A stretch of DNA of 64,000 nt from an uncultured Dialister sp. (GTDB lineage: Bacteria > Bacillota > Negativicutes > Veillonellales > Dialisteraceae), in assembly GCA_934193095.1 (NCBI GenBank), contig CAKPUX010000002.1, positions 17,863 through 81,862 of the forward strand, in the 5' to 3' direction. Under the pieces are notes generated by a model that had not been told where the DNA came from, searched no databases, and saw only the letters and a list, made by a program, of their open reading frames with translations. This document shows positions 477 to 46,706 of this stretch, one piece after another; position 1 is the stretch's first letter, and the number at the start of each line of letters is the position of its first letter. A program made the position numbers and the translations under genes.

Positions 477-505
477 TTGACTGTATGACTATCATACAGA
501 GTACC
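477..505 (+). promoter_or_regulatory. Promoter (-35 TTGACT) with palindromic Fur-box-like operator in the spacer, copy 1
   Basis: TTGACT at 477-482 is followed immediately by palindrome GTATGActaTCATAC (483-497). The same architecture occurs at 8920-8948 and 13895-13925. The -10 hexamer is not clear by eye. Confidence 0.55.
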
Positions 506-782
506 ATGCATGTAAATCATAAAAGGAAACGAATGGGGAATACTGGTGAGAATCCAGAGCTGTCCTGCAACCGTATGGGGAAAAGAAGCAGTGTTACGTC
601 TCTCACAAAGAGCTGCTTCTTTGAGGAACTCAGTCGGAGTGCCATGAAATTTCTTATATCCTATGAAAGTAAGCTGTAAATTTTACTTTTATATCAAAGA
701 CCTGCGAGGTATGGGTTGGATATCTTTTGCCGTTTTTAGCGTGCCAAAAGGATAGTCCAATGCATACCTGGCAGTTTTTTTT
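505..782 (+). promoter_or_regulatory. Cobalamin (B12) riboswitch-like leader with intrinsic terminator, copy 1
   Basis: Core GGGGAATACTGGTGAGAATCCAGAGCTGTCCTGCAACCGTATGGGGA (534-582) matches the cobalamin aptamer consensus as I recall it (GGGAA..GGTG.GAA.CC....C.G..C.GC.AC.GTA). A 10-bp hairpin lies at 582-591/613-622. A B12-box-like AGTCGGAGTGCC lies at 632-643. A long hairpin 702-730/745-774 is followed by T8 (775-782). Confidence 0.7.
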
Positions 783-883
783 ATTTTCTTGAGATACGAA
801 ACATAGAGTTCATTGGAAGTAAGGATCACACCGATTCGGATAATGACTGCAAAGCGTGTCTCGGCCAGAAAGGAGAAAGGAAA

Positions 884-3800
884 ATGCAAAGAAAGTGGGT
901 AAAACGGATGGTATTGGCGACCCTGTTTTTGGGAGGGGGCGCATTATTTCCTGCCGGGCAGCAGGCGCTGGCACAGGATGAGGCGGCTACTACAGGCCGT
1001 TCCTATGCGGTTCTGATGGGAGACGAGGATGTGACGCTGAGCGGCTATAAAACATCCAATGTCTATCTTTGGAAGCATGAGAAGGAAGCTCCGGATCAGT
1101 TGATCGGCGGGTCGGTGAAGGTATCCAGTGCCGGCTTACAGAATTCAGGTGACAAGGCAAGGATCACACTGGTCACCGACAGTGATGGGTTAGATCTGTC
1201 CAATGACGCCCAGGTGAAACAGGTGCTGGGGGCTCTGGCAGATAAATTGACATACACCGCATATACCAGGGGCGAAAAAAATCTGGAAGGCACCGCAGAA
1301 ATTTATGAAGGCTTGACCTTTGCTTCCGCTTCCAAGAAATTGTCTGCTTTGGATTTTGATGAAACTACGGGCAAGGCACAGCTGGCTGGAGAGGTCAAGA
1401 CCCCGTATTCCGGTGTCTTAGGTGTCGATGATGAATATGAAAAACGAGGCATCAAACAGGCCGATGGGACGTATCGCTTCCAGGAAGATGCGGTGATTCA
1501 CCCCGGCTTTAATATCACAAAGGATGATAATTACCTGAGAGATTTTGCCTCTGTGATGATTGGCAAAGATACCACCATTGATATGACAGGTCATAATCTG
1601 GATGTCATCATGCATGGCACGATTTATAATGGCGGCGGTTTTACCAATCGTGCGGCAGCTTTGTATGTACCGGGAAATGCGACCTTAACCATTAACAATC
1701 CGGGACAGATCCGTCTGGATACGGACTCTGACTATTATTACTATGCCGATATTGGTGCCATGAAGGAAGACAGCCATGTGGTCATTCATAATGATGACGA
1801 TCCAGCCCATGCCGTAGTGATGCGCGTCACTACCCCACTTAAAGGATATGAAATGAATGTGACTGCGCTGAAAACATTTGCAGGGACCATTGATATTGAC
1901 GGATTGGTCGATATTTATACCAATGGAGGATGGGCGACCAATGCAGCCAGTGGACGGATTTCTATTGGTGGCGGTTCTATTGTGACGCAGGCCTATAGTA
2001 GTGTCACCGCTCGAAGCGGGGGCGTGATGAACGTCAATGTATCGGGGTCTGTAGAAAAGGGATTGACGCCAGGAAATCATACGGTCAATATCACGGCGAA
2101 AGGAGCCACTTCTTGGGATAAAAATAGTTATGCTGCCTTGGCTTCTATGGGAGCCTGGGTAGGTGCAGACACCAATGCTACAGTAAATGCGGCATTGACG
2201 ACGGCAGATTCTACTTTGTGCGGGACAATCAAAGAAGCGGCTGGTACTCGTGATGAAGATACAACTGGTGTTCGTCTTTTCCTGCAGAATGGTGCACAAT
2301 GGACCAATAAGGGATCTTCTTCGATGCGTCATTTGTATGGCGGAAAAGATGCGGCGCATGCTGGGTATATCGATATGTCAAAGCCGGCAAACTCCAACGT
2401 CAATTCTGATCTGACGATTGCCAATTACACCGGAAATACAGTGATTTATTATAGCCAGGAAAGAGGAAGAAAAATCCAGGGAGGAAATATTCACATCGGT
2501 CATGCCGAGATGACAGATGGAAAGAAAGCCTCCATTACGATTCGTACCGATAGCAAGGGAATCAGCCAAAGCAAATTAACCAATGAAAGTTTCATGAGGA
2601 ATATGCTGAATACATTGGCTAATAAATTGTACTATGCGGCTTATGCGGAGGGGGAAAACAATCTGAAAGGAATAGTACAAATTGCTGAAGGGTTGACCAG
2701 CCAGAGTGTTTCAAGGGAAGAAGAGATTCACTTTACCAAAGGCGGCAGTGGCTATGTGGAAGGCTTTAATCAGAAACAGACCGATTTTACCACGGCTTTG
2801 ACTTGGGATATGACCAAAGATGTTGATTATGTAAATGCTAATGTACTGCGGGAAAAGGATAAAGCGACGTTTACAGAAGACACAAGTATCACCGTCAATG
2901 ATGAAGCTGCTATGCAGGCAAAAGGGGGGGATTTCGTAAAGATTGATGCCAAGCAAATCAATTTTAATTTGAAGGCAGCAGGTATTCAGGGTAAGGGAAT
3001 TGAAGTAACTGGTGAAGGCACGGAGTTTGATTTGAATAATCCAGGAGACGTTGAAATTGATGCGTCGACAGGTATAGTGACAGATGGTTCAAGGGCGGAC
3101 TTTGAGTTTAGTGGGGATAACTCTAATATTACCTTGCATCATGCAAAGACTGGTATACTAGCAACAAATAAATCTAATATTCTTATCAAGAATAAATTGG
3201 GTACTACTACCATAAATAATGAAAATACCGATGATTCTACTTTTGTTGGGGTGCAAACTCAAAATGGGGGATCTATTATAATAGCCGGACGGGCGAATAT
3301 AGACGCTGGCGCAGGGACTGCGTTAGCTGCGTTAGGAGGACGTATTGATGTCAATCATGGCGCTACGATTCAAACAAATGGAAGTACAGCGCTGGTAGCA
3401 GGTAATGGTAGCAGAATTTCTATCGCATCTTATAACTTTAACAAGCCAGCAGATATTTCTATTGATGCAGGAGATGGTTTTGCTATCGATGCTAGTGATG
3501 GCGGTTTTACCATTGGTAGTCAATCTGGTAGTCTTCGAACAACTAACGGTACAGTAAATATAAAAGGACATATCAAACTAGGGAAAGGCTATGGCACTTT
3601 AAATCTGACTAAAGAAAATTCCATTTGGACGGGTACGGCTGTGGATGGTACTGATGATGGTAGCGGGGTATTGCATCTCGCTATGGAACCGGATGCAGTT
3701 TGGAATCATGTAGATAAGGATGGTGATGCCGGGAGTGAAGTGAAGGTAGAGTTAGAAGGTGCAAGGTATATCGGATCTTCTGATGATCAGATTACCGTTT

Positions 3801-6800
3801 TGCAAAATAGTAAAAAGGGCATCCATTTTAAGGAGATTAGTCAAGTAGATGGCACGCTCAGACTTGTATTTGCCCATGAGGCAGATTCTCCGACTTCTAT
3901 CAAAGGTGGAAATATCACTATTGATACGGTAAGTACCCGGTATGTGGGTGGTACCGCTAAAGTTTTGGCTGTAACCGATAGTGATGGCATCAATATGTCT
4001 GACGATACCATGGTGGGAAATGTATTAAAGGCGTTAGCCAAGAAGATCACCTATACCCATCCGGAAGAAGCTAAATTAGTCGGGAAAGTAGGGATAGCAG
4101 ATGGCTTGACCGCCAAGAGTGCTATGCTGACAGAAGGGTTTATTCGCTTTGACCCGGATACGGGGGTAGGCAGCTATACACCACAAATGGTGGATACGTT
4201 TACCCGCTCCATGACGGGTGATGAGGCCTACGACAAGATTTATACGGATCAGGGGGTTCGCCAGAGCCAGTTCCTGTATTCCCTCGGGAAAGATACCACC
4301 ATCACCGCCGATAAATCCATGGATTGGAAAGTCAACAGTAATAGTAATGTTGTGCAGATTGTGGGACAGGGACATACGCTGCATCTGGATGCTGAAACCG
4401 CAGGTATTTATATCGGGAATGAAGAGAAAGATACTTCAAAACGTACTCAGCTGGAATTTACAGAAATGCCAGACCTGAATATAACAGCTGGTACAAATGG
4501 TAGTGGGATCCTGGTGAAAAACAGTAGTGCGAACATTGATCTAAAAGATAGCAGAATGCATATAGCAAGTAAAGATGGTGCAAAAGGTTTTGTCGGGATC
4601 AAAGTCGTAGAAGATCGTGATGTGGGAGATACAAAGGCAGGAGATACCAGTTTAAGTGTAGATGGCACTCTGGATATAGAAACGCCAGAAGGAATCGCTC
4701 TTTGGCTCGATGGAGGGAAAGGCTTAAGTCTTCTTAGTCCTGCTAATGTGATTCATGCAGAGGGCGGTACGCTGCTCAAAGTGACTAAGAGTCAGAACAA
4801 TAGTCAAGTTTCCATCAACGGTAAACAGTTAGTCGGAGACCTGGATCTTTTGGGAGCTACTGGCGGTACATATCGGATCACTTTAAATAACGGTGCTACC
4901 TGGACAGGCGGTATTGTTAACGACGTAGCGAAATCTGGCGCAGTTAGTCTTGATCTTTGGAACGATCAGTACAATATCACACCTACCGTATGGACTTATC
5001 AGTGGGAACAGAAAGATAAAGCACAGGATAGCTATATTCACACGGTGGAAGGATGGGCTCCTGGTATCGCTGAAAGTGCTATCTACATGAAAGCGGACAC
5101 AAACTTGACTATCGGCATGCTAAAACGGGGAATCCGAATCCTCTACGATCATGATGCTTCAAATCCAACGCAAATCCTTGGCGGAAATGTAACCATCAAA
5201 GAAGCAAAGAAAGTCGATCCGCAGACCACCCTTTATGTACGGACGGACAGTGATGGGATCAACATGGCAGATGAAACGCAGGTATCCGGTGTACTAAATG
5301 CCCTGGCTCAGAAAATCTACTACAAAGGAACGCCAGAAAACCTGGATAGCTATGCGGAAATCGCAGAAGGCCTGACTTCCGCTTCTGTGCTGAAAACAGG
5401 AAAATTTACCTATGACGAAACAACATATCAGGGTCATTTCTCTGGAGCGATCGAGACGCCTGGTCAGGATGGTACGTTATTTGTTACGCCTTTGTATGCC
5501 CCAAAAAGCTCTGGAAAGGATGAAAATAATACGGCCTATGCCAATGCAGGTGTCCAGCAGGATGGCAAGTACTTCATTTTCCGTAAGGATTCCAGGCTTC
5601 AGATTTCGCAGAGCGGGGAAATGCCTTACACCAGTGCTATCGATGCTTCCAATGACACTGGGGGATATGCAGCCATCAAGATGGACTTGACAGATCATCA
5701 GCTGGATGTACATATCGACGGTGGAGAAGAGGGTCTCAATGAAGCTGTAGCAGGGATCAAAGGGGTTGGCTGGAATGTGTCTGCCCAGAATGGTACCCTT
5801 CATATAGAGGCATCCAATGCCAAGGGGGATGCCATCGGTGTACAGACGGCTGGAAAATCGGAAACTTCTTCCATTATCGATTTGAAAACATTGACTCATA
5901 TTGATGCAAAGACTGGTTTCGACGTGACGGGTGGTACGGTCCGCGTCAATGCAGGAACTATTCATGCGGATACTCTGGGCAGAGTCGGTGCGAATGGCAT
6001 CCTGTCTATCGGAAATACGGGAGATGCGTCTGCCGTATGGACGGGCGACATGTCTCAGAGCGATGGACAGCTGGATATGAACCTGGATGGGGAAGATTCT
6101 ATCTGGACAGGCGCTATGGACTGGACCGGCGGCTCGAACAGCCTGATGCTTACGAATGGAGCGACCTGGAAAAATACCGGGGATTCCCATGTGGGACAGC
6201 TCGTCAGCGGCATTACGAGAAGTGTCGGCGGCGTGATTGACATGACCGGAGATTCTGGAAATATCCAGCTCGATAAGTTCAGCGGAAATGCTTCTATCCT
6301 GTACAAGCATGATGCCAATGACCTGACGAAGGTGTATGGCGGCGATGTGACTGTCACCAGCGCAGAGGCCGGCTCTCGGATCACATTGATCACGGATCGG
6401 GATGGTATCAGCGATGATGGACTTCGTGAAAAGGAAACGGTAAGCTCCCTTTTCCAGGCGATGGCAAACAAGCTGTACTACACCAATTATCAGACAGAGG
6501 GCAATCTCACCGGCATTCTCCAGATTTCGGAAGGGCTGACGGCGAGAGCGGCTTCCAAGGTCACCGGGGCTATGGAATTTGCCGGAGAAAATGGACAGGG
6601 GCAGTATAAAGCGGATAGCGCTTCCCCGTCGATTTATCCGAAAGACCAGCAGAAGGAAACCTTTACGACGGTCATGACAGGTAATGAGAGCACGGATAGC
6701 GAGTACCTCGATGGCGGTGTCATGAAGGTCGGGAATCCTTCGGATATCCGTTATGAATTCACCAAGGATAAGACCGCTGTAGAATTGGCTACGGCTTCTG

Positions 6801-8698: not shown

Positions 8699-8730
8699 TG
8701 CTTTTGATTTCGATAGCTCATCTCTGATCG

Positions 8731-8781
8731 TATAACAAAAAACTCGTGAATCGTAATGAGATTCACGAGTTTTTTGTTATA
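8731..8781. terminator. Bidirectional rho-independent terminator
   Basis: Palindrome TATAACAAAAAACTCGTGAATC ... GATTCACGAGTTTTTTGTTATA, 33 nt after the autotransporter stop. Confidence 0.85.
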
Positions 8782-8919
8782 TTAAGTTGCATTAGTTGTT
8801 GGAATCAAATAACCAGCAACTTACAACAATCAACAATTACTCATCCGCTATCTTATCAGTTGAAAAAGTGAATGAGAAGCTACTGCATTAAAGATTTTCA
8901 AATGTTTTTAATTTTCTCC

Positions 8920-8948
8920 TTGACTGTATGATAATCATACGGAATATC
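8920..8948 (+). promoter_or_regulatory. Promoter (-35 TTGACT) with Fur-box-like operator, copy 2
   Basis: TTGACT at 8920-8925 followed by GTATGATAATCATAC (8926-8940). The core ATGATAATCAT equals the centre of the classical 19-bp Fur box GATAATGATAATCATTATC. Confidence 0.6.
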
Positions 8949-8949
8949 A

Positions 8950-9200
8950 TTTCCTTAATGAAATGGTATGGGGAATGCTGGTGTAAATCCAGAACTGTCC
9001 TGCAACCGTATGGGGAGAAGGTTCATTGCACGTCTTTCACAAAGAAATGAATTCATCGAGGAACTAAGTCGGAGTGCCATGCTTTTTCGTAACTATCACA
9101 TCATGATGGTGTTCAAAGATCTGCGAGGTATGGGTCGGATAGAGTGATATTTCTTTTGTGATGCTCAAAATCCGGTCTATACTTGGCAGCTTTTTTATTT
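8950..9200 (+). promoter_or_regulatory. Cobalamin riboswitch-like leader with intrinsic terminator, copy 2
   Basis: GGGGAATGCTGGTGTAAATCCAGAACTGTCCTGCAACCGTATGGGGA, B12-box-like AGTCGGAGTGCC, and terminator arms 9121-9140 / 9170-9189 followed by a T-run (9191-9196). Relative to copy 1 the internal stem sequence differs while the loop ACGTCT.TCACAAAGA is conserved (covariation). Confidence 0.7.
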
Positions 9201-9233
9201 AATCAGTATATCTGAGAGAGGAGTGCGTGATTT

Positions 9234-13652: not shown

Positions 13653-13671
13653 TAGGAGCTAGAAGCCAAGA

Positions 13672-13707
13672 CTAGGGAAACACTGGTAATGATTAAATCA
13701 ATGTTTC
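13672..13707. repeat. Solo hairpin of the AGGGAAACACTGATTAAATC repeat family
   Basis: agggaaacactgg..caatgtttctct, 20 nt after the autotransporter stop. Same terminal sequence as the 163-bp elements at 28873 and 45854. Confidence 0.6.
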
Positions 13708-13741
13708 TCTGGTATGTGTGACTGCTATTTTAGGAGAATAA

Positions 13742-13781
13742 AGAGCTGTGAATTTGAAAGGAAATTCATGGCTCTTTTTTC
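13742..13781 (+). terminator. Rho-independent terminator
   Basis: agagctgtgaattt / aaattcatggctct stem followed by TTTTT. Confidence 0.75.
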
Positions 13782-13894
13782 TTTATGAGGAAGGGGAGAG
13801 TCCTTCACATAGAAGCAGGTGTGATTAGGCAAAATCCTGCACACAATTATTGCCTGTTCGTTGTTGGAGCCTTGATAACCATAAATAGGGGACT

Positions 13895-13925
13895 TGACTA
13901 TATGATGGTCATACGGTTGATACTA
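13895..13925 (+). promoter_or_regulatory. Promoter (-35 TTGACT) with Fur-box-like operator, copy 3 (no riboswitch downstream)
   Basis: TTGACT at 13895-13900 followed by aTATGAtggTCATAc (13901-13915), then ttgatact as a possible -10. The leader to the receptor gene is only about 90-100 nt. Confidence 0.55.
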
Positions 13926-14019
13926 AATAAGAATATAAAGTATAAAAGGATAGGTGTCATATTTTATTTCATGCCCCATATTCATCGAGCAAGAGGGCAA
14001 AATGGAAGGACTGGAGAAA

Positions 14020-16656: not shown

Positions 16657-16666
16657 GGAGGAATAG

Positions 16667-19600: not shown

Positions 19601-22600
19601 GATGACAAAGAGTACAAAGATGATCATGTATGGCAGGATCAGGTGTACACCTTTACCAAGGATAAAACGACTGTCCAGGTAGAGGGAGGCGCAGCTGTCG
19701 ATGCAGCGAAAGACGTGACCATCACAGCCGACGGGAATGAACTGGATCTGACCGGCGGCGAAGCTGGGATCCGTGCAGCGGCTGGAAAGACGGTAGACAT
19801 CACGGCAGGTATACTGAAAGTCAATGGCAAGACGGGGATCGATGCGGCTGGCACCGTGACACTCAAAGGCAAGAGTGAAATCACTGGGACTGAAAAGGCT
19901 GTCAACGTACAGAAGGGCGGAAGCGTAACGCTTGGCACATCGACCATCTCTGGAGATGTAGAAAACAGCGGCCATCTGACACTTGATGCAGCGACGACCG
20001 TGAGCGGCAGCATCGCCAATGCGGGCGTCCTTGCGGTAAACGGTGAGACCCATGCCAAAGATCTGACCACAACGGGAACGATGACTGTAGGAACTGATGG
20101 TGTGCTTGCGGCAGACAATATCAATGTCAATGGAGGTACCTTCACAGCCAATGGCAGTGTGAGCAGCACAGTCAAAGCTGACAAAGGCGGCAAGGCCATC
20201 CTGAAAGGAAAGAAGACCGCACTGAAAGGTCTGGTGAGTGGTGATCATTCCAGCATCGAAGCGACCCTTTCCGGAAAAGACTCCGCATTAAACGGCAGTC
20301 TTGATGGAGCAGGGAGTGTGACTCTGTCATTAGCAGATCAAGCAAACTGGACAGGGAATGCCGTTGGAAACGGAGATTACGCCGTTACCATCGGGAAAGA
20401 CAGCACCTGGACGGGAAGCAGTGCAGGAAACAATACCAGCCTCACCCTTGGAGGCACTTGGAACAACCGTGGAACAAGCAGCCTGAAGCAGATGGCAGGA
20501 AACGGCGGCGTCATCGATATGACAGATGCAAAGGCTGGCACTGTCACCATCCAGAACTATGGCGGCAGCAGCACCTATATCTACAAACACGACACAACAA
20601 AACCGGCAGACGCCAACAGTGGTTACGCTATCCTTGGCGGAGATGTGAAGATTTCCCAGGCAGACAAAGGCAGTGAGATCACCCTTCTTACCGATCGCGC
20701 TGGTTTGGATTTCACTTCGACCAAAGCAGACGAGAAGAATCTCATCAGCGGTACGTTGAATGCGCTCGCAGGAAAACTCTACTATACCGGCTACGCAGAT
20801 GGAAATCTTAGCGGAACGGTCAAGATCGCAGAAGGCCTGACAGCATCTTCTGCCAGCTTGAGATCTGAAACCATTACTTTCTCCACCGCTGATACAGGTA
20901 CCAAGAAGGCAGGACAGGGCTTCTACGATTATACTCCTGCGACGGATGATAAACCTTATGAAACCGGTCCTATTGTAAAATCTGAAAACATTGATGAAAC
21001 ACGTGTTGGCGATGTCAACGGCATTGTTTCTATTAATGTTACCGAAGCTCAGGATAGTGTAGCTGCTAGCGCGCCCAGCGCTATGTATGTAGCAGGCGAC
21101 GCAGTAAGCCCGCTTGTTGTTGACTTACAAGGGCACACCTTAAAGCTTAACACCAGCGGTGATGCAAAGATATATTTGTCTACAGTTTACGTTGATGCAG
21201 ACAAGAGCATGGAAATTAAGGATTCCAAAGGCAATGGCATCCTGAAGGTTTCCGCCGGTCTTGGTGCTGATGGCAATGCTGATACTAAAGCTAACTATGT
21301 TTATGGCATTCGTGTAGGTGAAAACGGCAGCTTTACCGCAAATACTGATGTTGAGATAGATGGAGTTAAATCTAATTCTAAACAGCGTGCTTATGGTGTA
21401 TATGTAAGTACCAAAGGCAATGTTGTATTCGAAAAGGATTTGACCATCAAGAATGTTCAGACCGGCAACAAGGTTGGACCGAATACAGCAGGTATTTATG
21501 CAGACAGTTCTTCAAGTGCAGATGCTCCTATCAATATAACTGTTAAAGGCAATCTTAATATTGAAAACGTATTGGGAAGTGCAATCCGTGCACTGAATTC
21601 TTCCACTATATCTACTGCTGGCGCAACAATTAAAGCTGCGGATATGTCTAACGGTACGGATTATAGCCAATATTATGCTTTGCAGGCCAACAAGGGTACC
21701 ATTAACCTGAATACCGGTGAAGGCATTACTGCCGGAATTCTGGATGTTACCGGTGATATGAAGGTAACAGATTACGCTGCTTCTGTTATCAATGTCAATA
21801 TGACGAAGGGTTCCAAATGGACAGGCGCAGTAAGCAATATTCCCGGCAGTACTTATAATGCACCTGCTGGTCAGTTTAATCTGACAATGGCAGAAGGATC
21901 CGTATGGAATCATGAAACCGGGCGTTCAGTAGATACGCTGAAGACAACGTTTGCCGGCAGCAATGTTTCTAAGCTGGACGGCTCCGGTGTAATCTATCAG
22001 AATTCCGACAAGGGTATTACCGTATATAATTACAGCGGTGACACAACGGTTGTTTATGGTCATGATGCAAATGATCCGCTGACCATCCATGGTGGTGATT
22101 TTACGATCAAGGCTGCCGCTGCCGATTCCAAGATCACTTTGGTCACCGATAGCCAGGGGATTACCGGTGGCTTTGAAGCTAGTGATACGGCAGCAGAAAA
22201 GAATCATGTCAAGGAAGTACTGAACAAGCTGGCTAATAAGCTGTTCTATACAGGCTACAAGGATGCAAATCTGTCTGGCGTTGTCAAGATTGCAGACGGT
22301 CTGACGGCATCTAGTGTAAGCGCTACTGTCAAAGCTTCCGGCGATGTGACCTTCTCTGACGGAACTAATGGGACGAAAAAGGCAGGGCAGGGATTCTATG
22401 CCTATACGCCGGAACAGGAAAAGCCCAATTATAAAACGGGTGCTATTACCAAGTCTGAAGATATCAGCCTGAGTCGTGAGCTGGATGAAAGCGGCGTAGC
22501 ACATGTTACTGTAACCGAATCGAATGTTACTAGTAATTTTGCCAGTGCTATTTACGCAGGCGAATCAACTGATCCGTCCAGCCCGATGACTGTAAAAATG

Positions 22601-25600
22601 TCCGGCAAGGGACTGGCTTTGAATGCTGCTCAATCGAGTGGACAGGCAGCAGCGATTTACGCAGGCGCTAATACCTATATCAAGGTTGTTAACCCGTCTG
22701 CTGACCAAAAGCTTTCAATTAGAGCAACCAATACGGATACCAGAGCCTCTCATGGCATTTACGCTCTAGGCAATGCGCACCTCAATATTTCCGGTCCGGT
22801 AGAAATTACTGAGGTTATCACTAAGGGTGATGCTGCAAATGGCATCAATATCCAGGGCCAGCAGAGCGAGATTACTATTGATGGTCCGCTGACAATCAGC
22901 AATGTCAAAGGTCTTAGAGAACGCGGCGCAGGCGTGAGTGCTTCCGGTATTCTGGTCACCGGTGACAGCTCCACTGTAACTGTCAGCGGTCCGGTCGACA
23001 TTTCCGGTGTACGCGGCAGCGGTATTAAGCTGGTGGGCGCTAATACCAAGGTATCTGTTGGCGGCGGCACTATTACTGCAGCCGAAGACAGCGATCATTC
23101 GCATAATTTCTATGCAGTCCGCGTAGATAAAGGCACGCTGGACATCAACATGAAGGACGGCGCTGCAGGCGATACGACCACCAAGATTACCGGGGATATG
23201 TATGCCACCGGCCAATATGGCAAGAAGGTCGTGGAATATACCGGCGGTGAGCTGATCGACTGGAATGACGCAGGCATTCTTAATGTGGCTTTGACCGATA
23301 AGGATTCCTTCTGGAAGGGCGTAGCAGCTTATGACCAGTATACTGATGACTATGGCACCGGCGGCAACACCACGCATGATATCGGGCAGTTCAACCTGTA
23401 TCTGCAAAACGGTGCCACCTGGACCAATGAGCAGCAGTCGCACGTGACAACAACGACCATAGCGTCCAAAAATCCTGTATGGGAAGGCAGCACGCTGGCT
23501 ACACTCAATGGCGGTAAGGATACGAATAGCGCAGGCTTGATTTACCAGAAGGATACCAATCCTATTTCTGTTGTCAATTACAGCGGTCATACCACGGTAT
23601 TCTATGATCATGATGCGAGTGACCCGACCAAGATCATCGGTGGCAACTTTAATATCACGAATGCAGCAGAAGGTTCTGCTATCACCTTTATTACCGATAA
23701 TAAGGGTATCACCTCCGGCTTTGCAGATGGCGATTCCAGTGTTGCCAAGGATAAAGTAGCAAACGTACTGAATAGCCTTGCAGGCAAGCTGTTCTACAAG
23801 AACTATACGGATGGTCATCTGACTGGCGTAGTGAAGATCGCTGATGGTCTGACCGCTTCTTCCGCGGCACTGAAGACTGGCGATATTTCCTTCTCTACGG
23901 ATCAGACGGGGACCGGTGTAGCTGGACAGGGCTATTATGCCTATACGACCAGCAAGCCTGGAAGCCAGACAGACAAAGAGTTCACAGCGGCCATCACTGG
24001 CGATGCATCGGTCGATACGGTATATGTGGATAAAGGCGTACTGAAGGACGATGGCACGTATGTATTCACGGCGGATAGCACGACTATCACACCTGAAAAG
24101 CATCTGGTTGCCGGTGGTGCGTGGGTTCCGCAGATTGGCGCAGCGATTTCCGGCTCCGATGAAAATCATAATGTGACCATGGATATGAATGGTAACAAGC
24201 TGACGGTAGATACAACAACCGATACCCATACAACCGGTATCGCGGCGATCGACAAGGGTGTGGTGAACATCAATCATGCCGGTGCCATGTCTATCAGTGC
24301 GGAAAGCACCAAGGGAGGTCAGACCGGTGCACTCTTTGTCAATGCCGGTGGTGCGATTCATATTCACAATGCAGGGGATAACAATGTACTGACTTTGCGT
24401 GCGAAGAGCACATCGCCGGCAAATGCTGCCGTGATCAAGAGCATGAACGGGGTAAACGGCGTGATGTCTTCTATCACCGTGGACGGTCTTGTCGATATTT
24501 TAGCTGAGAAGAGCGGGGGCTCCGGTGCGAATGAAGCCATCAGTGCAGTTGCCTCCAAGGTTGAGGTTGGCGGCGGCGTCATCAAGGCGATCAACGGAGC
24601 TGAATATGCGATTCGTGCTTATGGTGAATTCGCTTCCAAGAACCGCGGACAGGTGAATGTGAATGTCAAGAAGGATGCCAAAGGTGCTATCATCGGTGCA
24701 GGCAGCAATCATGTTCAGCTGGAAGGCAATATCTATCTCGGTGGCGGCATGGATAATGCCGGTGCCAGTGCAGATGTCAGTCTCGGTCTGAATACGAAGG
24801 ACTCTTTCTGGAAGGGTGATGTAAGCAATACCAATGGCAGCAGTGCAGGCATCGTCAATCTCTATATGGGAAGCGGTGCCACCTGGACTGGCAATAACCT
24901 TTCTGGCAATACGGTGAATGCAAGTCTGGATCATGCCACCTGGACCGGCTCTAGCAGCGGCAATGCGATGCACCTGAAGCTGGATAATTCTATCTGGAAT
25001 ATAAATGGCGCCAGCAAGCTGGCTTCCTTCTCCGGTGATAAAGGCAGCATCTCTGTGGCAAGTGATGCAGGCAACATCAGCGTAGGTGATTACAGCGGCA
25101 ATACCACTGTGATTTACAACCACGATGCTGATCATCCGACGAATATTCTCGGCGGCAGCTTTACTATCGGTCAGGCGAAGGACGGCTCCCATATCACGCT
25201 CATCACGGATAACCAGGGCATCACGAAAGGCTTTAACGCCTATGATAAGGCTGAAGACCAAAATACGGTCAATGAAGTTTTGAACAAGCTGGCACAGAAG
25301 CTCTTCTACACCGCGAATGATGGAAAACTGGCAGGCACTGTCAAGATCGCTTCTGGTTTAACTGCTTCTTCTGTGGCTTTGAAGACTGGCGATATTTCCT
25401 TCTCTACCGATGCAACCGGCACAAAGACACCTGGTCAGGGCTTCTATGAATATACCGAAGCAGACGATTCTGTCATTACCGATCCGATTACCGGTAACCT
25501 TGATAAGAAATATGTCAATCTGGGCATTGAAACAGAAAAAGGCATTTACAATTTCACAAAGGATGCGATTATTGATGTTACGAAGGGCGATTACAGCTTC

Positions 25601-28600
25601 AATTTGGGGGCTATCGAATCTAGGGGGGGTCCGATCACGATTCATGCGGATGGCTTGAATCTGGATGTATCCTACCATGTTCTGAAGGGCAGCAATGTGG
25701 CACGCGCAGTAGCTACTGGTAACAGTTATGGCATTAAGGATGTTACCATCAAGGCTAAGAGCCTGAAGCTCAGCACGGATACCACAGGCTTCTATGGTCA
25801 GGGTGTTTATGCAACCGGCGGCAAGATTAGCATTGATGCAGATACCACCATTTCTACCTCTGCTCAGACAGAAAGCAATGGTATTTACAGCGGCAACGGC
25901 GGCACTGTGACTATGAACGGCAACCTGACTATCCAAAAGGATAGCAAGGCAGCGAATTACTTTGCGCTGAAGTCTGATGATAATGGCGTGATCAACGTCA
26001 ATATGAAAGACGGCAAGGAAGGTACAGGCATCGTGAAGATCGATGGCGATGTCTTCACCAAGTCGGCAGAAAGCTACGATTATTGGGAGGACGAAACAAC
26101 TTCTACTTCTTCCACCGTTAATCTGGCATTGCAGGGCAAAGACAGCAGCTGGAACGGCCGCAGTCTCTACGAGGTTACTTCCTCTGGCGATGATTCAACT
26201 GATTATGGCGCTTTCAACCTGTGGTTGGCTGATGGTGCTTCCTGGACTAACGAGAAGAACGGCAAGGAGGTTCCGAGCGGCTTTACTGGTAGCCGTGTAA
26301 CTAAGTTTACTGGCGGCAGCGATGCGGCACACGCAGGCAACATCTTCCAAAACGATGCGAAGAATATCACCATCGACAACTACAGCGGCTATGCGAACAT
26401 TTACTATGCGCATGAAGGAAATGGCGAAGCGGCAGAAAACTACAAAGCGGGTGACACCATCATCAATAAGGCAGCTGCCGGCTCCCAGATTTCTCTCATC
26501 ACAGATAACACCGGTATCGCGATGGATAATGAGTACAGCGTCGCTAATGTCCTGAATGCACTGGCAGGCAAGCTCACCTACAGCGCGTATGTAAACGGCG
26601 AGAGGAATCTCACCGGCTATGTGAAGATCGCAGAAGGCTTGACGGCATCGAGCAAAGCCCAGCAGACCGGCGACATCGCCTTCAGCGATAAAGATGGCAA
26701 AGGCAGCCTGGCAGAAGGGACAGTCACACCTGGAGTCAAGTATCCGGAAACCCAGACGCCTGAAGCTACTGAAAAGAACCAGGGTATTACCGGCGATGCC
26801 AAGACTGACTATCAATACAAGAAGGACGGCATTCTGAAGAAAGACGGCTCTTATGTATTCACTCAGAATCCGACTAAGATCACGGTAGAGGAAGGAGCCG
26901 CTATCGATGCCAAGGCAGATATCACCATCGATACCAGCAAAGCGAAGCTGGAACTCACCGGCGAAGACGCCGGCATCAAGGCGGATGGTCATCAGGTATC
27001 CATCACCGGCAGCACCGTGATCACCGGCAAAGACGCGATCTCCGCTTCCAATGGCGGCAAAGTCACGCTGAATGGTATGACCGACATCAAAGCAGTTGGC
27101 GAGGATGGCACAGCGATTTCTGTAGCTGGCGAAGATAGCGAGGTCGCTATCACAGGCAATGCAGCCGCTTCGATCACGGGCGCTGTCTATGTCGCAGGCG
27201 GAAACCTTACTGTAAATACCGGGGCCACCACCACCATGACGGGAGATGTAGTCATCGATGGCGGCAAGGCTGACATCACCCTCGGAGACAAGGCTTCCAC
27301 CCTGACAGGCAATCTGTCTGTCAGCAACAATGGTCAGCTGACGCTCAATGTTAGCAATGGAGCCAAGGCGACAGGCAGCTATGCAGCAGGCAATGGCACC
27401 CTCACCATGAACGTCAAGGATGGCGGCTACTGGATCCTGAAAGATGCAGAAAACACCACCAGCCTGTATGCGATCAGCCTCGCTGATGCAGCAGAGGATG
27501 CGAACGCACCTGCAGCAGGAACCCTCAACGTCAATGGCGGCAGAGATAAAGCGCACACCGGCTACATCGACATGAGAGAGAGGACCCAGAACCTCGATAT
27601 CGCAAACTTCAGCGGACACGAAACCTTTATCATGGCGCATAAAGACGACGGCACTTTCACCAGCGGCAACGTGAACATTGCCAAAGCAGCTAACGGCTCC
27701 GGACTGACGCTTTACACAGCCAACAATGGCATCCAGATGACGGACAAAGCTGCCGTAACCAATATCTTGACAGCATTGGCACAGAAGGCCATCTATGCAG
27801 AGGGGAACGACGCAGGCAATGGCAAGAACCTGACTGGCGAAGTAAAGATCGGCGAAGGTCTCACCTCCTCCAGCGCCAAGACCGGAAAGATTGACTTCAG
27901 CAATTTGAGAGGACAGCTGGTCGTTGGCAGCATCCAGTGGGAACCGACCATTGAAACCGGTGACTACGAGACCTTCGTCATGAAGGGCGCAAGGAGCGCT
28001 GTCACCACCTCCTTCCACAGCTGGCGTGACAACATGCAGGACACCTACACCGGAGCAGACCTTGCTGATGAAGACGGCATCTTTGCCAAAGCTCTTGGCG
28101 GCAAGACCTCCTCGGATGTCAGCGGACTGAAAGACAGCAACAGCTACTGGGGCGCACAGGTGGGCTACGACAAAGCCCTTGCAAATGGCTGGAACACCGG
28201 CGTAGCCTTCGACTACCGTGATGGCGACAGCGATTACCTCCTGGGCGGCAAAGGCGACAACAAACTCTACAGCTTCGGCGTCTACGGCGTGAAGAAGATG
28301 GACAATGGCAGCTACTTCAGAGTGGCAGCCAAAGCCGGCCGTGTAGAAAACGAATACGACGTCTATACCGAACTCAGAAACAAACTGCATGCAGACTACA
28401 AAGCCAATGCCTATGGCCTCACCGCAGAATACGGCAAGACCTTCGGCAGCGAGATGAGCTACATCACCCCGAAAGTACAGCTCACCTGGTCCCGTGTAGG
28501 AAGCAAGGACTACACCGGCAGCGCAAACAATGGCGCAATCATGAACATCTATCAGGACAGCTACGACAGCCTTGTTGGCCGCCTCGGCTTCGAAGCGGGC

Positions 28601-28864
28601 ATGAAGAAAGCCAATGGCAGCCTTCATGCAGGGCTGTACCTGGCGCATGAATTCAATGGAGACATCGATACCCGCTACTTTGCCAAAGACGGCGGATGGA
28701 AATCCACCTCCTTTGACGGAGATGACACCTGGGCAGAACTGGTGCTCGGCGGAGAGTATCGCCTTGGCGGTAACACCCAGCTCTACGCAGACTTTGCCAG
28801 AGATCTGGGCGGTGACTTCCAGAGAAAGTGGAAGCTGAATGCCGGCATCCGCTTAAGATTCTGA
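16667..28864 (+). CDS. Giant classical autotransporter, 4065 aa, with a non-repetitive N-terminal ~440-aa domain
   Basis: RBS aaggagg lies 5 nt before the ATG, and the start is only 10 nt after the receptor stop. Signal peptide ..MAFLTALIGSLMAGSSVGA/AN. Seven conserved modules. C-terminal translocator (FVMKGARSAVTTSFHSWRDN, GIFAKALGGK, YWGAQVGYDK, terminal AGIRLRF). Confidence 0.9.
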   Translation: MMWKMSNKKRKMAFLTALIGSLMAGSSVGAANLMATIPSDYHNSQMGGVTGSRVTTTVDAAPVVGAVKNLNGDPATFSVFINGESQIFLRQYTYSTVALKGSVLMDADGDWASVNNPTGEITAVPNAHAAVGYWNTLYTTGYDNGQIGLAKVNGKQLVENKLKTVNLKTDIKEKTGDVDAASYDTYKDTNGKVQFTSVHGEGLLIKDGYLYVAASVNKKGGTDDYDNGYLLQYKIKNDGGLEYRDYARIGKNTNNVRLNSYNNLILATAVGGYQHYGKLNPESALNYVDVSDNHIGQIHETRSVHLPEQVKNDGYDFRDMKVLPDGTVYVMKYTLSATGGEFTGRVYQTTMANLMSKNPDDWQVVLDGKVDDGCFGRLNAEYYTKRLWVEWGNNLYVYEDGDTKPTHQWVTKDFSTDTQFYQFNSVTMLPTDQVWGNLAKLTTYRPEGLTASSETKITVENADAKVGTVTRKAGITGTSADQTAFSDVTSDDGTYSFTKDEVLSINLGKEGDHATNAAAVIQAKDGKDITIDASGHSLQLASKNYIASPVGIYAGNGKNVSITADKVDVVTSGYSSGNSLTNAIWNDGGKNTASQITVNGDVNISMSGGYGGNGVAIQKSFRWGENSQESTASSAITIHGNLKIAGEDSATWGIPVNRENVLSRFNNAGILTNIEKSKVTVTGDVDMAVYGNGITTNARDSEVSIGGGHITVPQGTKYGYYTLGAYAGTINVNMNEAGSAAGTHDVQLDGDVFALKSTGTINLGLTTKNSYLNGIIDNGGKVNMWLQNGAVWTNEAKNTRYKQDDEDVGSNEVSRVTFLHGGTKSGTSDTAGVIIQTENSKSLTIDKFSGAAKVLYSHDSNTPTKILGGDVTIGSAIRGSEIVLRTDYDDNMQSDAVKNQVLNALAKKLYYKDAVNEKTALSGKVEIAEGLTASSAAKYIGNIAFNQTNGQGSLGSGETPEPPAEQSKTLFTSSMTGGDDKEYKDDHVWQDQVYTFTKDKTTVQVEGGAAVDAAKDVTITADGNELDLTGGEAGIRAAAGKTVDITAGILKVNGKTGIDAAGTVTLKGKSEITGTEKAVNVQKGGSVTLGTSTISGDVENSGHLTLDAATTVSGSIANAGVLAVNGETHAKDLTTTGTMTVGTDGVLAADNINVNGGTFTANGSVSSTVKADKGGKAILKGKKTALKGLVSGDHSSIEATLSGKDSALNGSLDGAGSVTLSLADQANWTGNAVGNGDYAVTIGKDSTWTGSSAGNNTSLTLGGTWNNRGTSSLKQMAGNGGVIDMTDAKAGTVTIQNYGGSSTYIYKHDTTKPADANSGYAILGGDVKISQADKGSEITLLTDRAGLDFTSTKADEKNLISGTLNALAGKLYYTGYADGNLSGTVKIAEGLTASSASLRSETITFSTADTGTKKAGQGFYDYTPATDDKPYETGPIVKSENIDETRVGDVNGIVSINVTEAQDSVAASAPSAMYVAGDAVSPLVVDLQGHTLKLNTSGDAKIYLSTVYVDADKSMEIKDSKGNGILKVSAGLGADGNADTKANYVYGIRVGENGSFTANTDVEIDGVKSNSKQRAYGVYVSTKGNVVFEKDLTIKNVQTGNKVGPNTAGIYADSSSSADAPINITVKGNLNIENVLGSAIRALNSSTISTAGATIKAADMSNGTDYSQYYALQANKGTINLNTGEGITAGILDVTGDMKVTDYAASVINVNMTKGSKWTGAVSNIPGSTYNAPAGQFNLTMAEGSVWNHETGRSVDTLKTTFAGSNVSKLDGSGVIYQNSDKGITVYNYSGDTTVVYGHDANDPLTIHGGDFTIKAAAADSKITLVTDSQGITGGFEASDTAAEKNHVKEVLNKLANKLFYTGYKDANLSGVVKIADGLTASSVSATVKASGDVTFSDGTNGTKKAGQGFYAYTPEQEKPNYKTGAITKSEDISLSRELDESGVAHVTVTESNVTSNFASAIYAGESTDPSSPMTVKMSGKGLALNAAQSSGQAAAIYAGANTYIKVVNPSADQKLSIRATNTDTRASHGIYALGNAHLNISGPVEITEVITKGDAANGINIQGQQSEITIDGPLTISNVKGLRERGAGVSASGILVTGDSSTVTVSGPVDISGVRGSGIKLVGANTKVSVGGGTITAAEDSDHSHNFYAVRVDKGTLDINMKDGAAGDTTTKITGDMYATGQYGKKVVEYTGGELIDWNDAGILNVALTDKDSFWKGVAAYDQYTDDYGTGGNTTHDIGQFNLYLQNGATWTNEQQSHVTTTTIASKNPVWEGSTLATLNGGKDTNSAGLIYQKDTNPISVVNYSGHTTVFYDHDASDPTKIIGGNFNITNAAEGSAITFITDNKGITSGFADGDSSVAKDKVANVLNSLAGKLFYKNYTDGHLTGVVKIADGLTASSAALKTGDISFSTDQTGTGVAGQGYYAYTTSKPGSQTDKEFTAAITGDASVDTVYVDKGVLKDDGTYVFTADSTTITPEKHLVAGGAWVPQIGAAISGSDENHNVTMDMNGNKLTVDTTTDTHTTGIAAIDKGVVNINHAGAMSISAESTKGGQTGALFVNAGGAIHIHNAGDNNVLTLRAKSTSPANAAVIKSMNGVNGVMSSITVDGLVDILAEKSGGSGANEAISAVASKVEVGGGVIKAINGAEYAIRAYGEFASKNRGQVNVNVKKDAKGAIIGAGSNHVQLEGNIYLGGGMDNAGASADVSLGLNTKDSFWKGDVSNTNGSSAGIVNLYMGSGATWTGNNLSGNTVNASLDHATWTGSSSGNAMHLKLDNSIWNINGASKLASFSGDKGSISVASDAGNISVGDYSGNTTVIYNHDADHPTNILGGSFTIGQAKDGSHITLITDNQGITKGFNAYDKAEDQNTVNEVLNKLAQKLFYTANDGKLAGTVKIASGLTASSVALKTGDISFSTDATGTKTPGQGFYEYTEADDSVITDPITGNLDKKYVNLGIETEKGIYNFTKDAIIDVTKGDYSFNLGAIESRGGPITIHADGLNLDVSYHVLKGSNVARAVATGNSYGIKDVTIKAKSLKLSTDTTGFYGQGVYATGGKISIDADTTISTSAQTESNGIYSGNGGTVTMNGNLTIQKDSKAANYFALKSDDNGVINVNMKDGKEGTGIVKIDGDVFTKSAESYDYWEDETTSTSSTVNLALQGKDSSWNGRSLYEVTSSGDDSTDYGAFNLWLADGASWTNEKNGKEVPSGFTGSRVTKFTGGSDAAHAGNIFQNDAKNITIDNYSGYANIYYAHEGNGEAAENYKAGDTIINKAAAGSQISLITDNTGIAMDNEYSVANVLNALAGKLTYSAYVNGERNLTGYVKIAEGLTASSKAQQTGDIAFSDKDGKGSLAEGTVTPGVKYPETQTPEATEKNQGITGDAKTDYQYKKDGILKKDGSYVFTQNPTKITVEEGAAIDAKADITIDTSKAKLELTGEDAGIKADGHQVSITGSTVITGKDAISASNGGKVTLNGMTDIKAVGEDGTAISVAGEDSEVAITGNAAASITGAVYVAGGNLTVNTGATTTMTGDVVIDGGKADITLGDKASTLTGNLSVSNNGQLTLNVSNGAKATGSYAAGNGTLTMNVKDGGYWILKDAENTTSLYAISLADAAEDANAPAAGTLNVNGGRDKAHTGYIDMRERTQNLDIANFSGHETFIMAHKDDGTFTSGNVNIAKAANGSGLTLYTANNGIQMTDKAAVTNILTALAQKAIYAEGNDAGNGKNLTGEVKIGEGLTSSSAKTGKIDFSNLRGQLVVGSIQWEPTIETGDYETFVMKGARSAVTTSFHSWRDNMQDTYTGADLADEDGIFAKALGGKTSSDVSGLKDSNSYWGAQVGYDKALANGWNTGVAFDYRDGDSDYLLGGKGDNKLYSFGVYGVKKMDNGSYFRVAAKAGRVENEYDVYTELRNKLHADYKANAYGLTAEYGKTFGSEMSYITPKVQLTWSRVGSKDYTGSANNGAIMNIYQDSYDSLVGRLGFEAGMKKANGSLHAGLYLAHEFNGDIDTRYFAKDGGWKSTSFDGDDTWAELVLGGEYRLGGNTQLYADFARDLGGDFQRKWKLNAGIRLRF

Positions 28865-28872
28865 TGGGAACT

Positions 28873-29035
28873 AGGGAAACACTGATTAAATCGTTGTCAG
28901 ATTTTACTCTTGAATTTTTATGCATGGCGAGGAATAACCTGACGCGAATAGCGAGCTATTTAAGGAAGGCTATGACGAAGCCATGTATAAAAATTCTTGT
29001 AGAATCTGACTCTGCGATTTAATCAGCGTTTCCCT
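28873..29035. mobile_element. 163-bp MITE-like palindromic element, copy A
   Basis: Terminal inverted repeats AGGGAAACACTGATTAAATCG (28873-28893) and CGATTTAATCAGCGTTTCCCT (29015-29035), plus internal inverted repeats (gaatttttatgcatggc / gccatgtataaaaattc). A near-identical inverted copy lies at 45854-46016. Confidence 0.75.
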
Positions 29036-29167: not shown

Positions 29168-29647
29168 AATAAAGCGACGTTTGTTAGATGAAGAAATTCC
29201 CGTATCGTCATCTCGAGCGAAGTCCAGGGATCTTTCTTGCGGGCTGGTTATATGGCACAGGCGAGACAGTGGTATAACGTAGCAACGAGGCGTCGTTACT
29301 GAGTCTATGCATACGTGCTGATTACCGCAGTGCAGTAGAGATCCCTCGGCTACGCTCGGGATGACGAAACGCTGATTCAATCTTGCAACGATTGAATCAG
29401 CGTTTCCTTAGGTGTCAGATATGTGAGATAAAGAAGAGCCCGTATCGTCATCTCGAGCGAAGTCGAGAGATCTTTCTTGCAGGACGGTATACGGCACATG
29501 CGAGACGGTGGTATAACGCAGCAACAAGGCATTGCTGCTGTGTCTATGCATACGTGCCGATTACCGCAGTGCAGTAGAGATCCCTCGGCTACGCTCGGGA
29601 TGACGATACGCTGATTCAATCTTGCAACGATTGAATCAGTGTTTCCT
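29168..29647. repeat. Tandem duplication (2 x 240 bp) of a long palindromic element
   Basis: cccgtatcgtcatctcgagcgaagtc occurs at 29199 and 29439, giving a 240-bp period. Each unit has arms cgtatcgtcatctcgagcgaagtc.ag.gatct / agagatccctcggctacgctcgggatgacga.acg and ends in the hairpin gctgattcaatcttgcaacgattgaatcag.gtttcc. Confidence 0.85.
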
Positions 29648-29743
29648 TAGAAATGAGAAATGGCGATACGCTATCTCATGAATCTCAATAGAAAAGCGCG
29701 AAAATCTTTGCTGGATTGTCGCGCTTTTGTGTTTGATGAAATA

Positions 29744-30634: not shown

Positions 30635-30654
30635 AATAGACCTTCTTTCTTATA

Positions 30655-45391: not shown

Positions 45392-45437
45392 AAAAAAGCC
45401 CTACACGACTAACCGTAGTCTTGCAGGGCTTTTTATT
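45392..45437. repeat. Hairpin of the ..TAGTCTTGCAGGGCTTTT family
   Basis: aaaaaagccctacacgactaaccgtagtcttgcagggctttttatt. Confidence 0.55.
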
Positions 45438-45499
45438 TATATCCATATAGTGCATCGTTATATTTACACTATTTAATTCACTGTAATTTACGGTAAATT

Positions 45500-46688: not shown

Positions 46689-46706
46689 CTGTAGAGACAA
46701 AATGGT

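Follow-up and report, generated by a model that had tools for sequence, protein, structure and literature searches.

Organization of the locus

The subject of this report is an outer-membrane locus of about 28 kb in the genome of an uncultured Dialister species, in which three autotransporter genes and the gene of a TonB-dependent receptor lie head to tail, and the evidence collected here bears on a role of this locus in the acquisition of corrinoids (B12). The locus is part of a stretch of 64,000 nucleotides (assembly GCA_934193095.1, contig CAKPUX010000002.1, positions 17,863 to 81,862), to which we refer throughout as the window, and whose first letter is position 1 of all window coordinates. 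An earlier note on this DNA, made from its letters alone, had described the receptor and the three autotransporters, of 2604, 1472 and 4065 amino acids (aa), and had suggested that the locus captures corrinoids or another tetrapyrrole; the open reading frames (ORFs) lie exactly where it had placed them. The genes, and the parts of the third autotransporter, are as follows.

884..8698, forward strand: autotransporter 1, 2604 aa (PF03797 at 5e-45, TIGR01414, repeat analysis)
9234..13652, forward strand: autotransporter 2, 1472 aa, with three repeat modules and a beta-barrel (PF03797 at 4.9e-36)
14020..16656, forward strand: TonB-dependent receptor of a BtuB-like clade (Plug domain at 5e-19; likely ATG start)
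16667..28864, forward strand: autotransporter 3, 4065 aa, co-transcribed with the receptor (10-nucleotide gap; the pair is conserved)
16754..17990, forward strand: N-terminal beta-propeller of autotransporter 3, residues ~30-440 (AlphaFold2 and Foldseek)
18104..27880, forward strand: stalk of autotransporter 3, seven beta-helical repeat units of ~410-520 aa (repeat analysis, AlphaFold2 model of one unit)
28082..28864, forward strand: beta-barrel domain of autotransporter 3 (PF03797 at 1.1e-38)

The three autotransporters have the features of type Va secretion: PF03797 is present in all of them, signal peptides are visible in the translations, and the passenger is modelled as a beta-helix. The whole 4065-aa protein gave no match when compared with Pfam, and its barrel was recognized in the C-terminal 465 aa scanned alone. 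The receptor ORF opens at a GTG at 13954 (900 aa), the likely start being the ATG at 14020, which is followed by a signal peptide; from the receptor stop codon to the start of autotransporter 3 there are only 10 nucleotides (nt).

A search of public assemblies for an identical copy of the 1472-aa protein gave no match. The nearest public contigs belong to Dialister (Veillonellaceae). The propeller domain of autotransporter 3 has counterparts with 95% identity in contig L006, 86% in Dialister sp. UBA10667, and 76-77% in two other Dialister assemblies. A 93%-identical metagenomic contig (L001) is without the whole 1472-aa autotransporter and its riboswitch (9234-13652 in the window), and also without one repeat of ~1.4 kb of the 4065-aa gene (20937-22370 in the window). 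Since both are missing from L001, it can be concluded that close strains differ in their complement of autotransporters and in repeat number.

The receptor, the propeller and the passenger repeats

In the receptor the Plug domain (PF07715) is recognized at 5e-19, and in its close homologues PF00593 is recognized additionally; homologues of ~880-950 aa are common in Negativicutes. Among solved transporters the plug is nearest to Escherichia coli BtuB (8.6e-19, with the next one at 3.5e-14), and the best NCBIfam model is TonB-B12, which matches in the plug region only, followed by TonB-hemin.

The first ~440 aa of the 4065-aa protein were modelled by AlphaFold2, from an alignment of 24 sequences, as an all-beta domain of ~26 strands with a predicted local distance difference test (pLDDT) of 87 and a predicted template modelling score (pTM) of 0.87. 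The matches of this model in Foldseek are mainly seven-bladed beta-propellers. BtuG is among them, both in its complex with BtuB (8bmx_D) and in a B12-bound form (8bn0), with a target-normalised template modelling (TM) score of 0.61 and 11-12% identity; this is a resemblance of fold class and not evidence of homology, because other propellers score as well or better. Neither the propeller nor its distant relatives belong to any Pfam or NCBIfam family, and the propeller profile finds no sequence similarity to any solved protein among all PDB chains. The family is small: of 1.84 billion cluster representatives, 372 match at E up to 0.001. The signal peptide of autotransporter 3 is of the Sec type and has no lipobox cysteine, so that the lipid anchor of the BtuG proteins is missing here. 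We have not assigned the propeller to the BtuG family, because sequence homology and lipid anchor both fail.

The passengers of all three autotransporters consist of repeat units of ~410-520 aa, each of which ends in a conserved module of ~110 aa with the consensus HDxxxPTxILGG...TDxxGI...VLNALAxKLxY...IAEGLTASS. One unit was modelled by AlphaFold2 as a beta-helix (pLDDT 77), and a fold search with this model gave weak matches to the fucoidan lyase FdlA and to the autotransporter passengers TibA, Hbp, Ag43 and pertactin, none of them at E <= 0.001. The Pfam scan of the passengers found no known B12-binding domain (for example, DUF4465) and no protease domain. The earlier note had supposed that the passengers bind corrinoids; for autotransporters 1 and 2 nothing points to such binding, and their repeat is a generic beta-helix.

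These observations are the natural starting point for a different explanation of the locus, in which the autotransporters would simply be adhesins or aggregation factors, with B12 as no more than a signal for their regulation, and the receptor alone would handle B12. Scarcity of B12 would then lead to the display of long fibres that attach to B12 producers, mucus or host cells, with the passengers, and possibly the propeller, binding surfaces or glycans. Besides the lack of a B12-binding domain in the Pfam scan, such an explanation can point to the adhesins TibA, Ag43, pertactin and UpaB among the weak matches of the repeat unit, to the sialidase and glycan-active propellers among the fold matches, and to the differences in repeat number and gene content between close strains, which are typical of adhesins. 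What it has to account for is the genomic company of the propeller and of the riboswitches, which is described in the next two sections.

Cobalamin riboswitch leaders

The leaders of autotransporters 1 and 2, which the earlier note had called B12-riboswitch-like, were compared with the cobalamin riboswitch models of Rfam clan CL00101 (RF00174 and RF01689), with the curated gathering score as the cut-off. The features recognized in and before these leaders are listed here.

521..652, forward strand: cobalamin riboswitch aptamer of leader 1 (Rfam AdoCbl-II, 31.2 bits, E 3.8e-5)
696..784, forward strand: expression platform of leader 1, a long terminator hairpin with a U-run (-40.5 kcal/mol, z -7.5)
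8743..8775, forward strand: intrinsic terminator-like hairpin with a T-run after autotransporter 1 (read from the sequence)
8955..9087, forward strand: cobalamin riboswitch aptamer of leader 2 (Rfam AdoCbl-II, 41.3 bits, E 1.8e-6)
9112..9204, forward strand: expression platform of leader 2, a terminator hairpin with a U-run (-32 kcal/mol, z -4.9)

Leader 2 passes the gathering score of AdoCbl-II (41.3 versus 36.5 bits). Leader 1 falls below it (31.2 versus 36.5 bits, with an E value that comes from a 1-kb search) and is a clear paralogue of leader 2. In an alignment of 23 sequences of the leader subtype (A5), compensatory double changes occur in 17 of the 31 predicted aptamer pairs. Since each leader ends in a long hairpin followed by a U-run, both are read as transcription attenuators. 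The model scores, the covariation and the terminators support the assignment of both leaders as cobalamin-riboswitch aptamers with attenuators, for which a response to corrinoids is predicted; the description in the earlier note was in this respect a good one.

Conservation of the receptor-propeller pair and of its riboswitches

A scan with the propeller profile, in which one genome per species was retained, yielded 52 loci from Dialister, Selenomonas, Centipeda, Schwartzia, Phascolarctobacterium, Sporomusa, Megamonas and Fusobacterium. In 49 of these loci the gene directly before that of the propeller encodes a homologue of the receptor (41-98% identity). Of the three exceptions, two are truncated at a contig end, and the third is a Schwartzia bin (L013) in which a cobalamin riboswitch (3907-4070) stands directly before the propeller-autotransporter, with no receptor gene upstream. 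In most lineages the propeller is fused to an autotransporter (1,200-4,800 aa), while Sporomusa ovata and its relatives, Megamonas, Fusobacterium and some Phascolarctobacterium have it as a separate protein of 415-464 aa. Three contexts, one of them in Anaerosinus gibii, have a giant propeller-autotransporter (48-85% identity in the propeller) right after the receptor, and A. gibii also has a second riboswitch-controlled receptor, which is followed by a stand-alone propeller homologue of 422 aa (30% identity, E 3e-35). The earlier note had compared the locus to the BtuG proteins that sit beside BtuB in Bacteroides, and the comparison has become closer than it could have been from the letters alone, as the N-terminus of autotransporter 3 is a beta-propeller and its gene follows that of the receptor almost without exception.

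Cobalamin riboswitches (RF00174 at the gathering score) precede the receptor-propeller pair in 22 of the 47 loci that were scanned for them, with scores of up to 120 bits and often in tandem. All scanned Selenomonas and Sporomusa loci, the stand-alone-type Phascolarctobacterium loci and a second locus of Dialister (L022) make up this group; a cobalamin riboswitch is also present before both receptors of A. gibii (L002) and before the receptor of L004. The second receptor-propeller-autotransporter locus is carried by the Dialister genomes that also have the first one: the copy in L030 of the L022 riboswitch is just below the threshold, while L021 and L031 are negative at the gathering score. 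As an example from another genus, a Sporomusa ovata riboswitch named btuB2 has been validated in a reporter (PMC9600662), and its gene may correspond to the receptor gene studied here.

The reverse approach, a scan of metagenomes with a pattern of the window's riboswitch subtype, recovered 111 instances on 110 contigs. The first large gene downstream encodes a propeller-less autotransporter of the window family in 50 instances (30-99% identity), a member of the receptor family in 41 and another protein in 7, with 13 unresolved. The subtype precedes one or the other of the two families in 91 of 98 resolvable cases, a ratio that shows the dedication of the subtype and not its frequency among all cobalamin riboswitches, since the pattern was built from the leaders of the system itself. 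Among the seven other genes, four resemble the N-terminus of an autotransporter, and the remaining ones encode an ExbB, a transposase and a MerR-family regulator. By sequence, the proteins encoded downstream form 20-29 clusters, which means that the result is not due to repeated sampling of one species.

The comparative test that the earlier note had proposed, that is, the recurrence of riboswitch, receptor and autotransporter together in other Negativicutes, has turned out in its favour in the scanned loci, in the Schwartzia bin and in the metagenomes. Overall these comparisons lend substantial support to a putative B12 role of the receptor and of the propeller-tipped autotransporter. They also make it rather unlikely that the autotransporters are simply adhesins: co-regulation of adhesins with B12 uptake leaves unexplained why the propeller, fused or stand-alone, should remain linked to the receptor, and the riboswitch subtype is almost confined, among the resolvable cases, to the receptor and autotransporter families.

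Two loci are of interest for the genes that follow the pair. In Sporomusa (L049:6213-8906) these are a papain-like C1 peptidase, a 382-aa protein without known function and an amidase; in Fusobacterium (L055:5803-7675) they are exbB, exbD and tonB. We have also noticed that 'cleanbin' assemblies labelled as Fusicatenibacter, Escherichia coli, Segatella copri, Bacteroidaceae, Bacteroides and Paludibacteraceae contain contigs with Negativicutes-type loci (the bins that look mislabelled are L006, L029, L031, L032, L037, L038, L041 and L048), which suggests contamination in binning.

Mouth and gut are the habitat of the genera that carry the pair, and most of the B12 found there is bound to proteins. 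This habitat speaks for another possibility, namely that the propeller, the passengers or both bind B12-carrier proteins (haptocorrin, intrinsic factor, transcobalamin or bacterial binders) and not the free corrinoid, with the cofactor being stripped from the carrier or presented to the receptor in the manner of TbpB-TbpA and HxuA-HxuC, whose ligands are carriers of iron and haem. A stalk of such length would be suited to reaching a macromolecular ligand, and the peptidase placed directly after the stand-alone propeller in Sporomusa would find a use; Sporomusa, on the other hand, is a free-living acetogen that has the same receptor-propeller pair, and no protein-binding domain was recognized. 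Even with the precedent of BtuG2, which reportedly takes B12 away from intrinsic factor (PMC10404256), we hold carriers to be quite an improbable ligand.

The shared promoter module and a candidate MerR-family regulator

Each of the three transcription units begins with the same promoter module, as the earlier note had seen.

477..507, forward strand: promoter 1, with -35 TTGACT (477-482), a 19-nt spacer and a -10-like TACCAT (502-507)
8920..8950, forward strand: promoter 2, with TTGACT, a 19-nt spacer containing TGTATGA-TAA-TCATACG and a -10-like TATCAT
13894..13924, forward strand: promoter 3, with TTGACT, a 19-nt spacer containing TATATGA-TGG-TCATACG and a -10-like GATACT; no riboswitch follows

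In a motif search, TTGACTRTATGA-N3-TCATAC was found in exactly three copies on the forward strand (at 477, 8920 and 13894), versus 0.04 expected by chance; a fourth match in the list is the first palindrome read on the minus strand, with 3 mismatches. A standard promoter scan, which allows spacers of 16-18 nt, flagged none of the three promoters. Promoter 3 is only ~100 nt from the start of the receptor, which leaves no room for a riboswitch.

The palindrome is a 7-3-7 dyad (TGTATGA-N3-TCATACA/G), and its first base is also the final T of TTGACT. In promoter 1 it reads TGTATGA-CTA-TCATACA (482-498) and is kept in related contigs. Seven promoters of diverged Dialister loci agree fully in the arms of the dyad and differ in the three central bases and in the flanks; the motif of promoter 3 is likewise invariant at the receptor promoters of five Dialister relatives despite diverged flanks.

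The label of Fur-box-like, which the earlier note had given to this palindrome, did not hold up. The palindrome matches 9-11 of the 19 positions of the Fur consensus (counted by hand), and its invariant part is the outer arms, not the centre; the 7-1-7 arms of the Fur family, with their conserved inner AAT-N-ATT, are not matched. An operator of Fur, Zur or PerR was rejected on the mismatch to the consensus, the invariant outer arms and the variable centre. The NikR-type operator of E. coli (GTATGA/TCATAC half-sites 16 nt apart) is alike in its half-site words, but the spacing here is 3 nt.

Without a Fur box, nothing speaks for control by iron or haem, which bears on a further explanation of the locus. 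Its substrate would then be a different tetrapyrrole or a chelated metal (haem, or a complex of cobalt or nickel), its expression would be governed by a Fur-type repressor, and the riboswitch would only couple it to the cobalt or corrin economy. Haem and siderophores are indeed frequent substrates of receptors of this class, TonB-hemin ranks second among the NCBIfam models of the receptor, the palindrome has a core (ATGA-N3-TCAT) that coincides in part with the middle of the Fur consensus, and the loci of Fusobacterium and of many Phascolarctobacterium are without a riboswitch. We nevertheless consider this very improbable, in view of arms that are unlike Fur, Zur and PerR boxes and inner bases that vary, of the position of the palindrome within a 19-bp spacer and its recurrence before a MerR-family gene, of the control of orthologous receptors by riboswitches in many genera, and of a plug that is closest to BtuB.

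The MerR-family gene just mentioned is known from related contigs. The window starts in the last codons of skp (1-12), and in five contigs of its lineage the order upstream of this point is a divergent MerR-family gene, a small ORF, a 159-aa protein and Skp/OmpH, followed by the riboswitch and autotransporter 1; the regulator gene is therefore placed ~2.2 kb upstream of position 1, outside the window. It is found at L118:8271-9140, and also in L129, L146, L108, L083 and L096. The regulator has 290 aa, a MerR helix-turn-helix (PF13411), a length like that of BmrR and an effector domain without recognised family; its closest solved relatives are SkgA, Mta, BrlR, EcmrR and BmrR. In three of the five contigs the start codon of the regulator gene is preceded, at a distance of 25-40 nt, by the same dyad, GTATATGA-N3-TCATACGG; in a fourth contig the dyad has one mismatch. 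In L096, which is another species, an orthologue of the regulator (42% identity) stands behind a riboswitch of the same subtype, and the promoter with TTGACC and the palindrome precedes the 159-aa protein and Skp.

A 19-bp spacer with an internal dyad is the geometry of the Tn501 merT promoter. Because of this geometry and of the dyad before the neighbouring MerR-family gene, we read the palindrome as the putative operator of a BmrR-like regulator of the MerR family. Control of the MerR type probably takes the place of the Fur/iron element proposed earlier, and it would account for the regulation of the receptor operon in a lineage in which no riboswitch precedes it. As a separate observation, a protein of 156-159 aa, without Pfam or NCBIfam match and without signal peptide, adjoins an OmpH/Skp gene beside these autotransporter loci in many contigs (for example, L001:1-915, L096:235-1159 and L004:20896-21815); the two may constitute a dedicated chaperone pair for the giant autotransporters.

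Neighbouring sequences

After the stop codon of autotransporter 3 there is a 162-bp element with inverted-repeat ends (GGGAAACACTGATTAAATC ... GATTTAATCAGCGTTTCCC, window 28872-29033). Similar ends occur near 13674-13712, and the element is found in the opposite orientation between genes at L001:9694-9855; it resembles a miniature mobile element or the scar of a recombination event. Further on, at 29190-29650, there are two tandem units of ~240 bp, each with a terminal hairpin (GAAACGCTGATTCAATC...GATTGAATCAGCGTTTCC), which precede an ORF of 331 aa (29660-30655) that gave no Pfam or NCBIfam match.

The window from 29 to 64 kb contains housekeeping genes (prfA, prmC, sua5, rpiB, glyA, sbcCD, fatty-acid synthesis, rnc) and a patch of Fic, HipA and recombinase genes, with no regulator or B12 genes among its contents. 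In this patch (44030-54107) a Fic protein, a HipA-like kinase, a serine recombinase and a SAP-domain protein stand between housekeeping blocks, and they may represent a small mobile or toxin-antitoxin island.

Interpretation and significance

The reading that we favour, with a probability of roughly 0.6, is that the locus is the outer-membrane part of a corrinoid (B12) acquisition regulon of Dialister, composed of a receptor-propeller core, of paralogous autotransporters gated by riboswitches, and of a MerR-type layer of control. The corrinoid-capture hypothesis of the earlier note is thereby retained for the receptor and the propeller-autotransporter, on comparative grounds, given up for the Fur/iron element, and not supported for corrinoid binding by the passengers of autotransporters 1 and 2.

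A mechanism in keeping with this reading would be the following. When corrinoids are scarce, the two riboswitches would be read through and autotransporters 1 and 2 would be made, while in the presence of plentiful corrinoid transcription of both would be terminated. The MerR-type regulator would set the activity of all three promoters, and in the lineage of the window it would be the sole layer of control on the receptor operon. Receptor and autotransporter 3 would be co-translated from one mRNA; the barrel of the latter would insert in the outer membrane and display the long beta-helical stalk, whose tip is formed by the propeller. This domain would then bind corrinoids at the surface and pass them to the BtuB-like transporter, or would act as its cap. 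The role of autotransporters 1 and 2 is the weakest part of the reading: their leaders place them in the response to low B12, but their sequence gives no hint of a ligand; extra corrinoid binding, binding of B12 carriers and adhesion are all candidates for their role.

Several results weigh against this interpretation. With respect to the proteins, the receptor does not pass the BtuB equivalog (TIGR01779 / NF007926), reaching 107 bits versus a cut-off of 599.7, in the plug only. The propeller fold is generic, as lactonase-like and amine-dehydrogenase propellers score equal to or above BtuG in Foldseek, and the propeller profile of 24 sequences finds no match to BtuG at E up to 10 among all PDB chains, BtuG included. 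The model of the repeat unit is a generic beta-helix with no recognisable ligand-binding fold. In addition, the stand-alone propellers start with 'MSENLFAYT' and have no signal peptide (L049-L053, L055-L057 and L002:7691-8959), with the single exception of L054, while the fused forms carry a Sec signal; a position at the surface is thus not evident for the stand-alone forms, and a signal-less secretion of the HasA type is conceivable for them but unsupported. With respect to regulation, the receptor operon of the window itself has no riboswitch, and about half of the scanned loci are without a recognisable one; in the autotransporter-type loci of Phascolarctobacterium and in those of Fusobacterium none was found even at relaxed thresholds, except for a 25-bit match in L037. 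The metagenome scan depends, as noted, on a pattern taken from the system, and the proposed regulator of the palindrome is encoded beyond the window.

In a broader and more tentative form, to which we would give somewhat less than an even chance, the locus would represent an unrecognised class of corrinoid capture in diderm Firmicutes and Fusobacteria, in which a propeller without sequence similarity to BtuG serves a BtuB-like transporter, in most lineages from the tip of an autotransporter, with further riboswitch-gated autotransporters as 'fishing lines' for corrinoids or B12 carriers and with a MerR-family regulator. To our knowledge, outer-membrane acquisition of B12 in diderm Firmicutes is essentially unstudied, and we know of surface capture of B12 from Bacteroidetes only; in the open-access literature we found no paper that links autotransporters to cobalamin riboswitches, or that describes BtuG-like proteins outside Bacteroidetes. 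Dialister and Phascolarctobacterium are the main consumers of succinate in the gut, which they convert to propionate by a B12-dependent pathway (PMC11441152). In Bacteroidetes, surface capture of B12 decides competitive fitness and can take the vitamin from host intrinsic factor (PMC10404256).

If the reading is correct, it would give autotransporters their first role in B12 acquisition, and with it a role in nutrient uptake; it would provide the first partner of the lid type for a TonB-dependent transporter outside Bacteroidota; and it would assign a function to a propeller family without Pfam or NCBIfam match. Display of the propeller by type V secretion would moreover be an independent way round the limit set by lipoprotein export.

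Comparison with known systems

The classical regulatory precedent for the promoters is that of MerR, BmrR and EcmrR, with which they share the over-long 19-bp spacer, the dyad inside it and a dyad before the regulator gene; the differences are that the effector domain here has no recognised family and that the regulator gene lies beyond the window. Among transporters, E. coli btuB is alike in that it encodes an outer-membrane B12 transporter gated by a cobalamin riboswitch, whose plug is the nearest solved relative. BtuB works without a surface partner, whereas a propeller accompanies the receptor here; and the riboswitches of the window are attenuators before autotransporter genes, its receptor gene having none.

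With respect to surface proteins that bind a tetrapyrrole, Hbp/Tsh of E. coli, a member of the serine protease autotransporters of Enterobacteriaceae (SPATE), is a classical autotransporter with a haem-capturing passenger, and its structure (1wxr) is among the weak matches of the repeat unit. The passengers studied here have no serine-protease or other Pfam domain, and Hbp is encoded without a receptor and without a riboswitch. The arrangement of an exposed or secreted binder and a receptor in one operon is that of TbpB-TbpA, HpuA-HpuB, HxuA-HxuC and HasA-HasR, which differ in their folds, in their ligands (iron and haem carriers) and in their secretion, by way of lipoproteins, two-partner systems or type I. 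HasA has no N-terminal signal peptide, in which it resembles the stand-alone propellers.

The closest parallel is with the BtuB-BtuG(-BtuH/BtuJ) systems of Bacteroides. There too a riboswitch-controlled TonB-dependent transporter (here, in the relatives of the window) adjoins a beta-propeller, and there can be several loci per genome, as compared with two per Dialister genome; BtuG2 is a seven-bladed propeller that binds corrinoids in its central cavity (PMC10404256). The differences are that the propeller described here has no sequence homology to BtuG and no lipoprotein signal, and that it either tips an autotransporter or stands alone. Transporters capped by lipoproteins have been described as apparently exclusive to Bacteroidetes (PMC10404256), and a survey of transporter lids guessed that other diderms are without the machinery for exporting lipoproteins to the surface (bioRxiv 10.1101/2023.03.17.533168); with display by an autotransporter, the propeller would reach the same place by another route.

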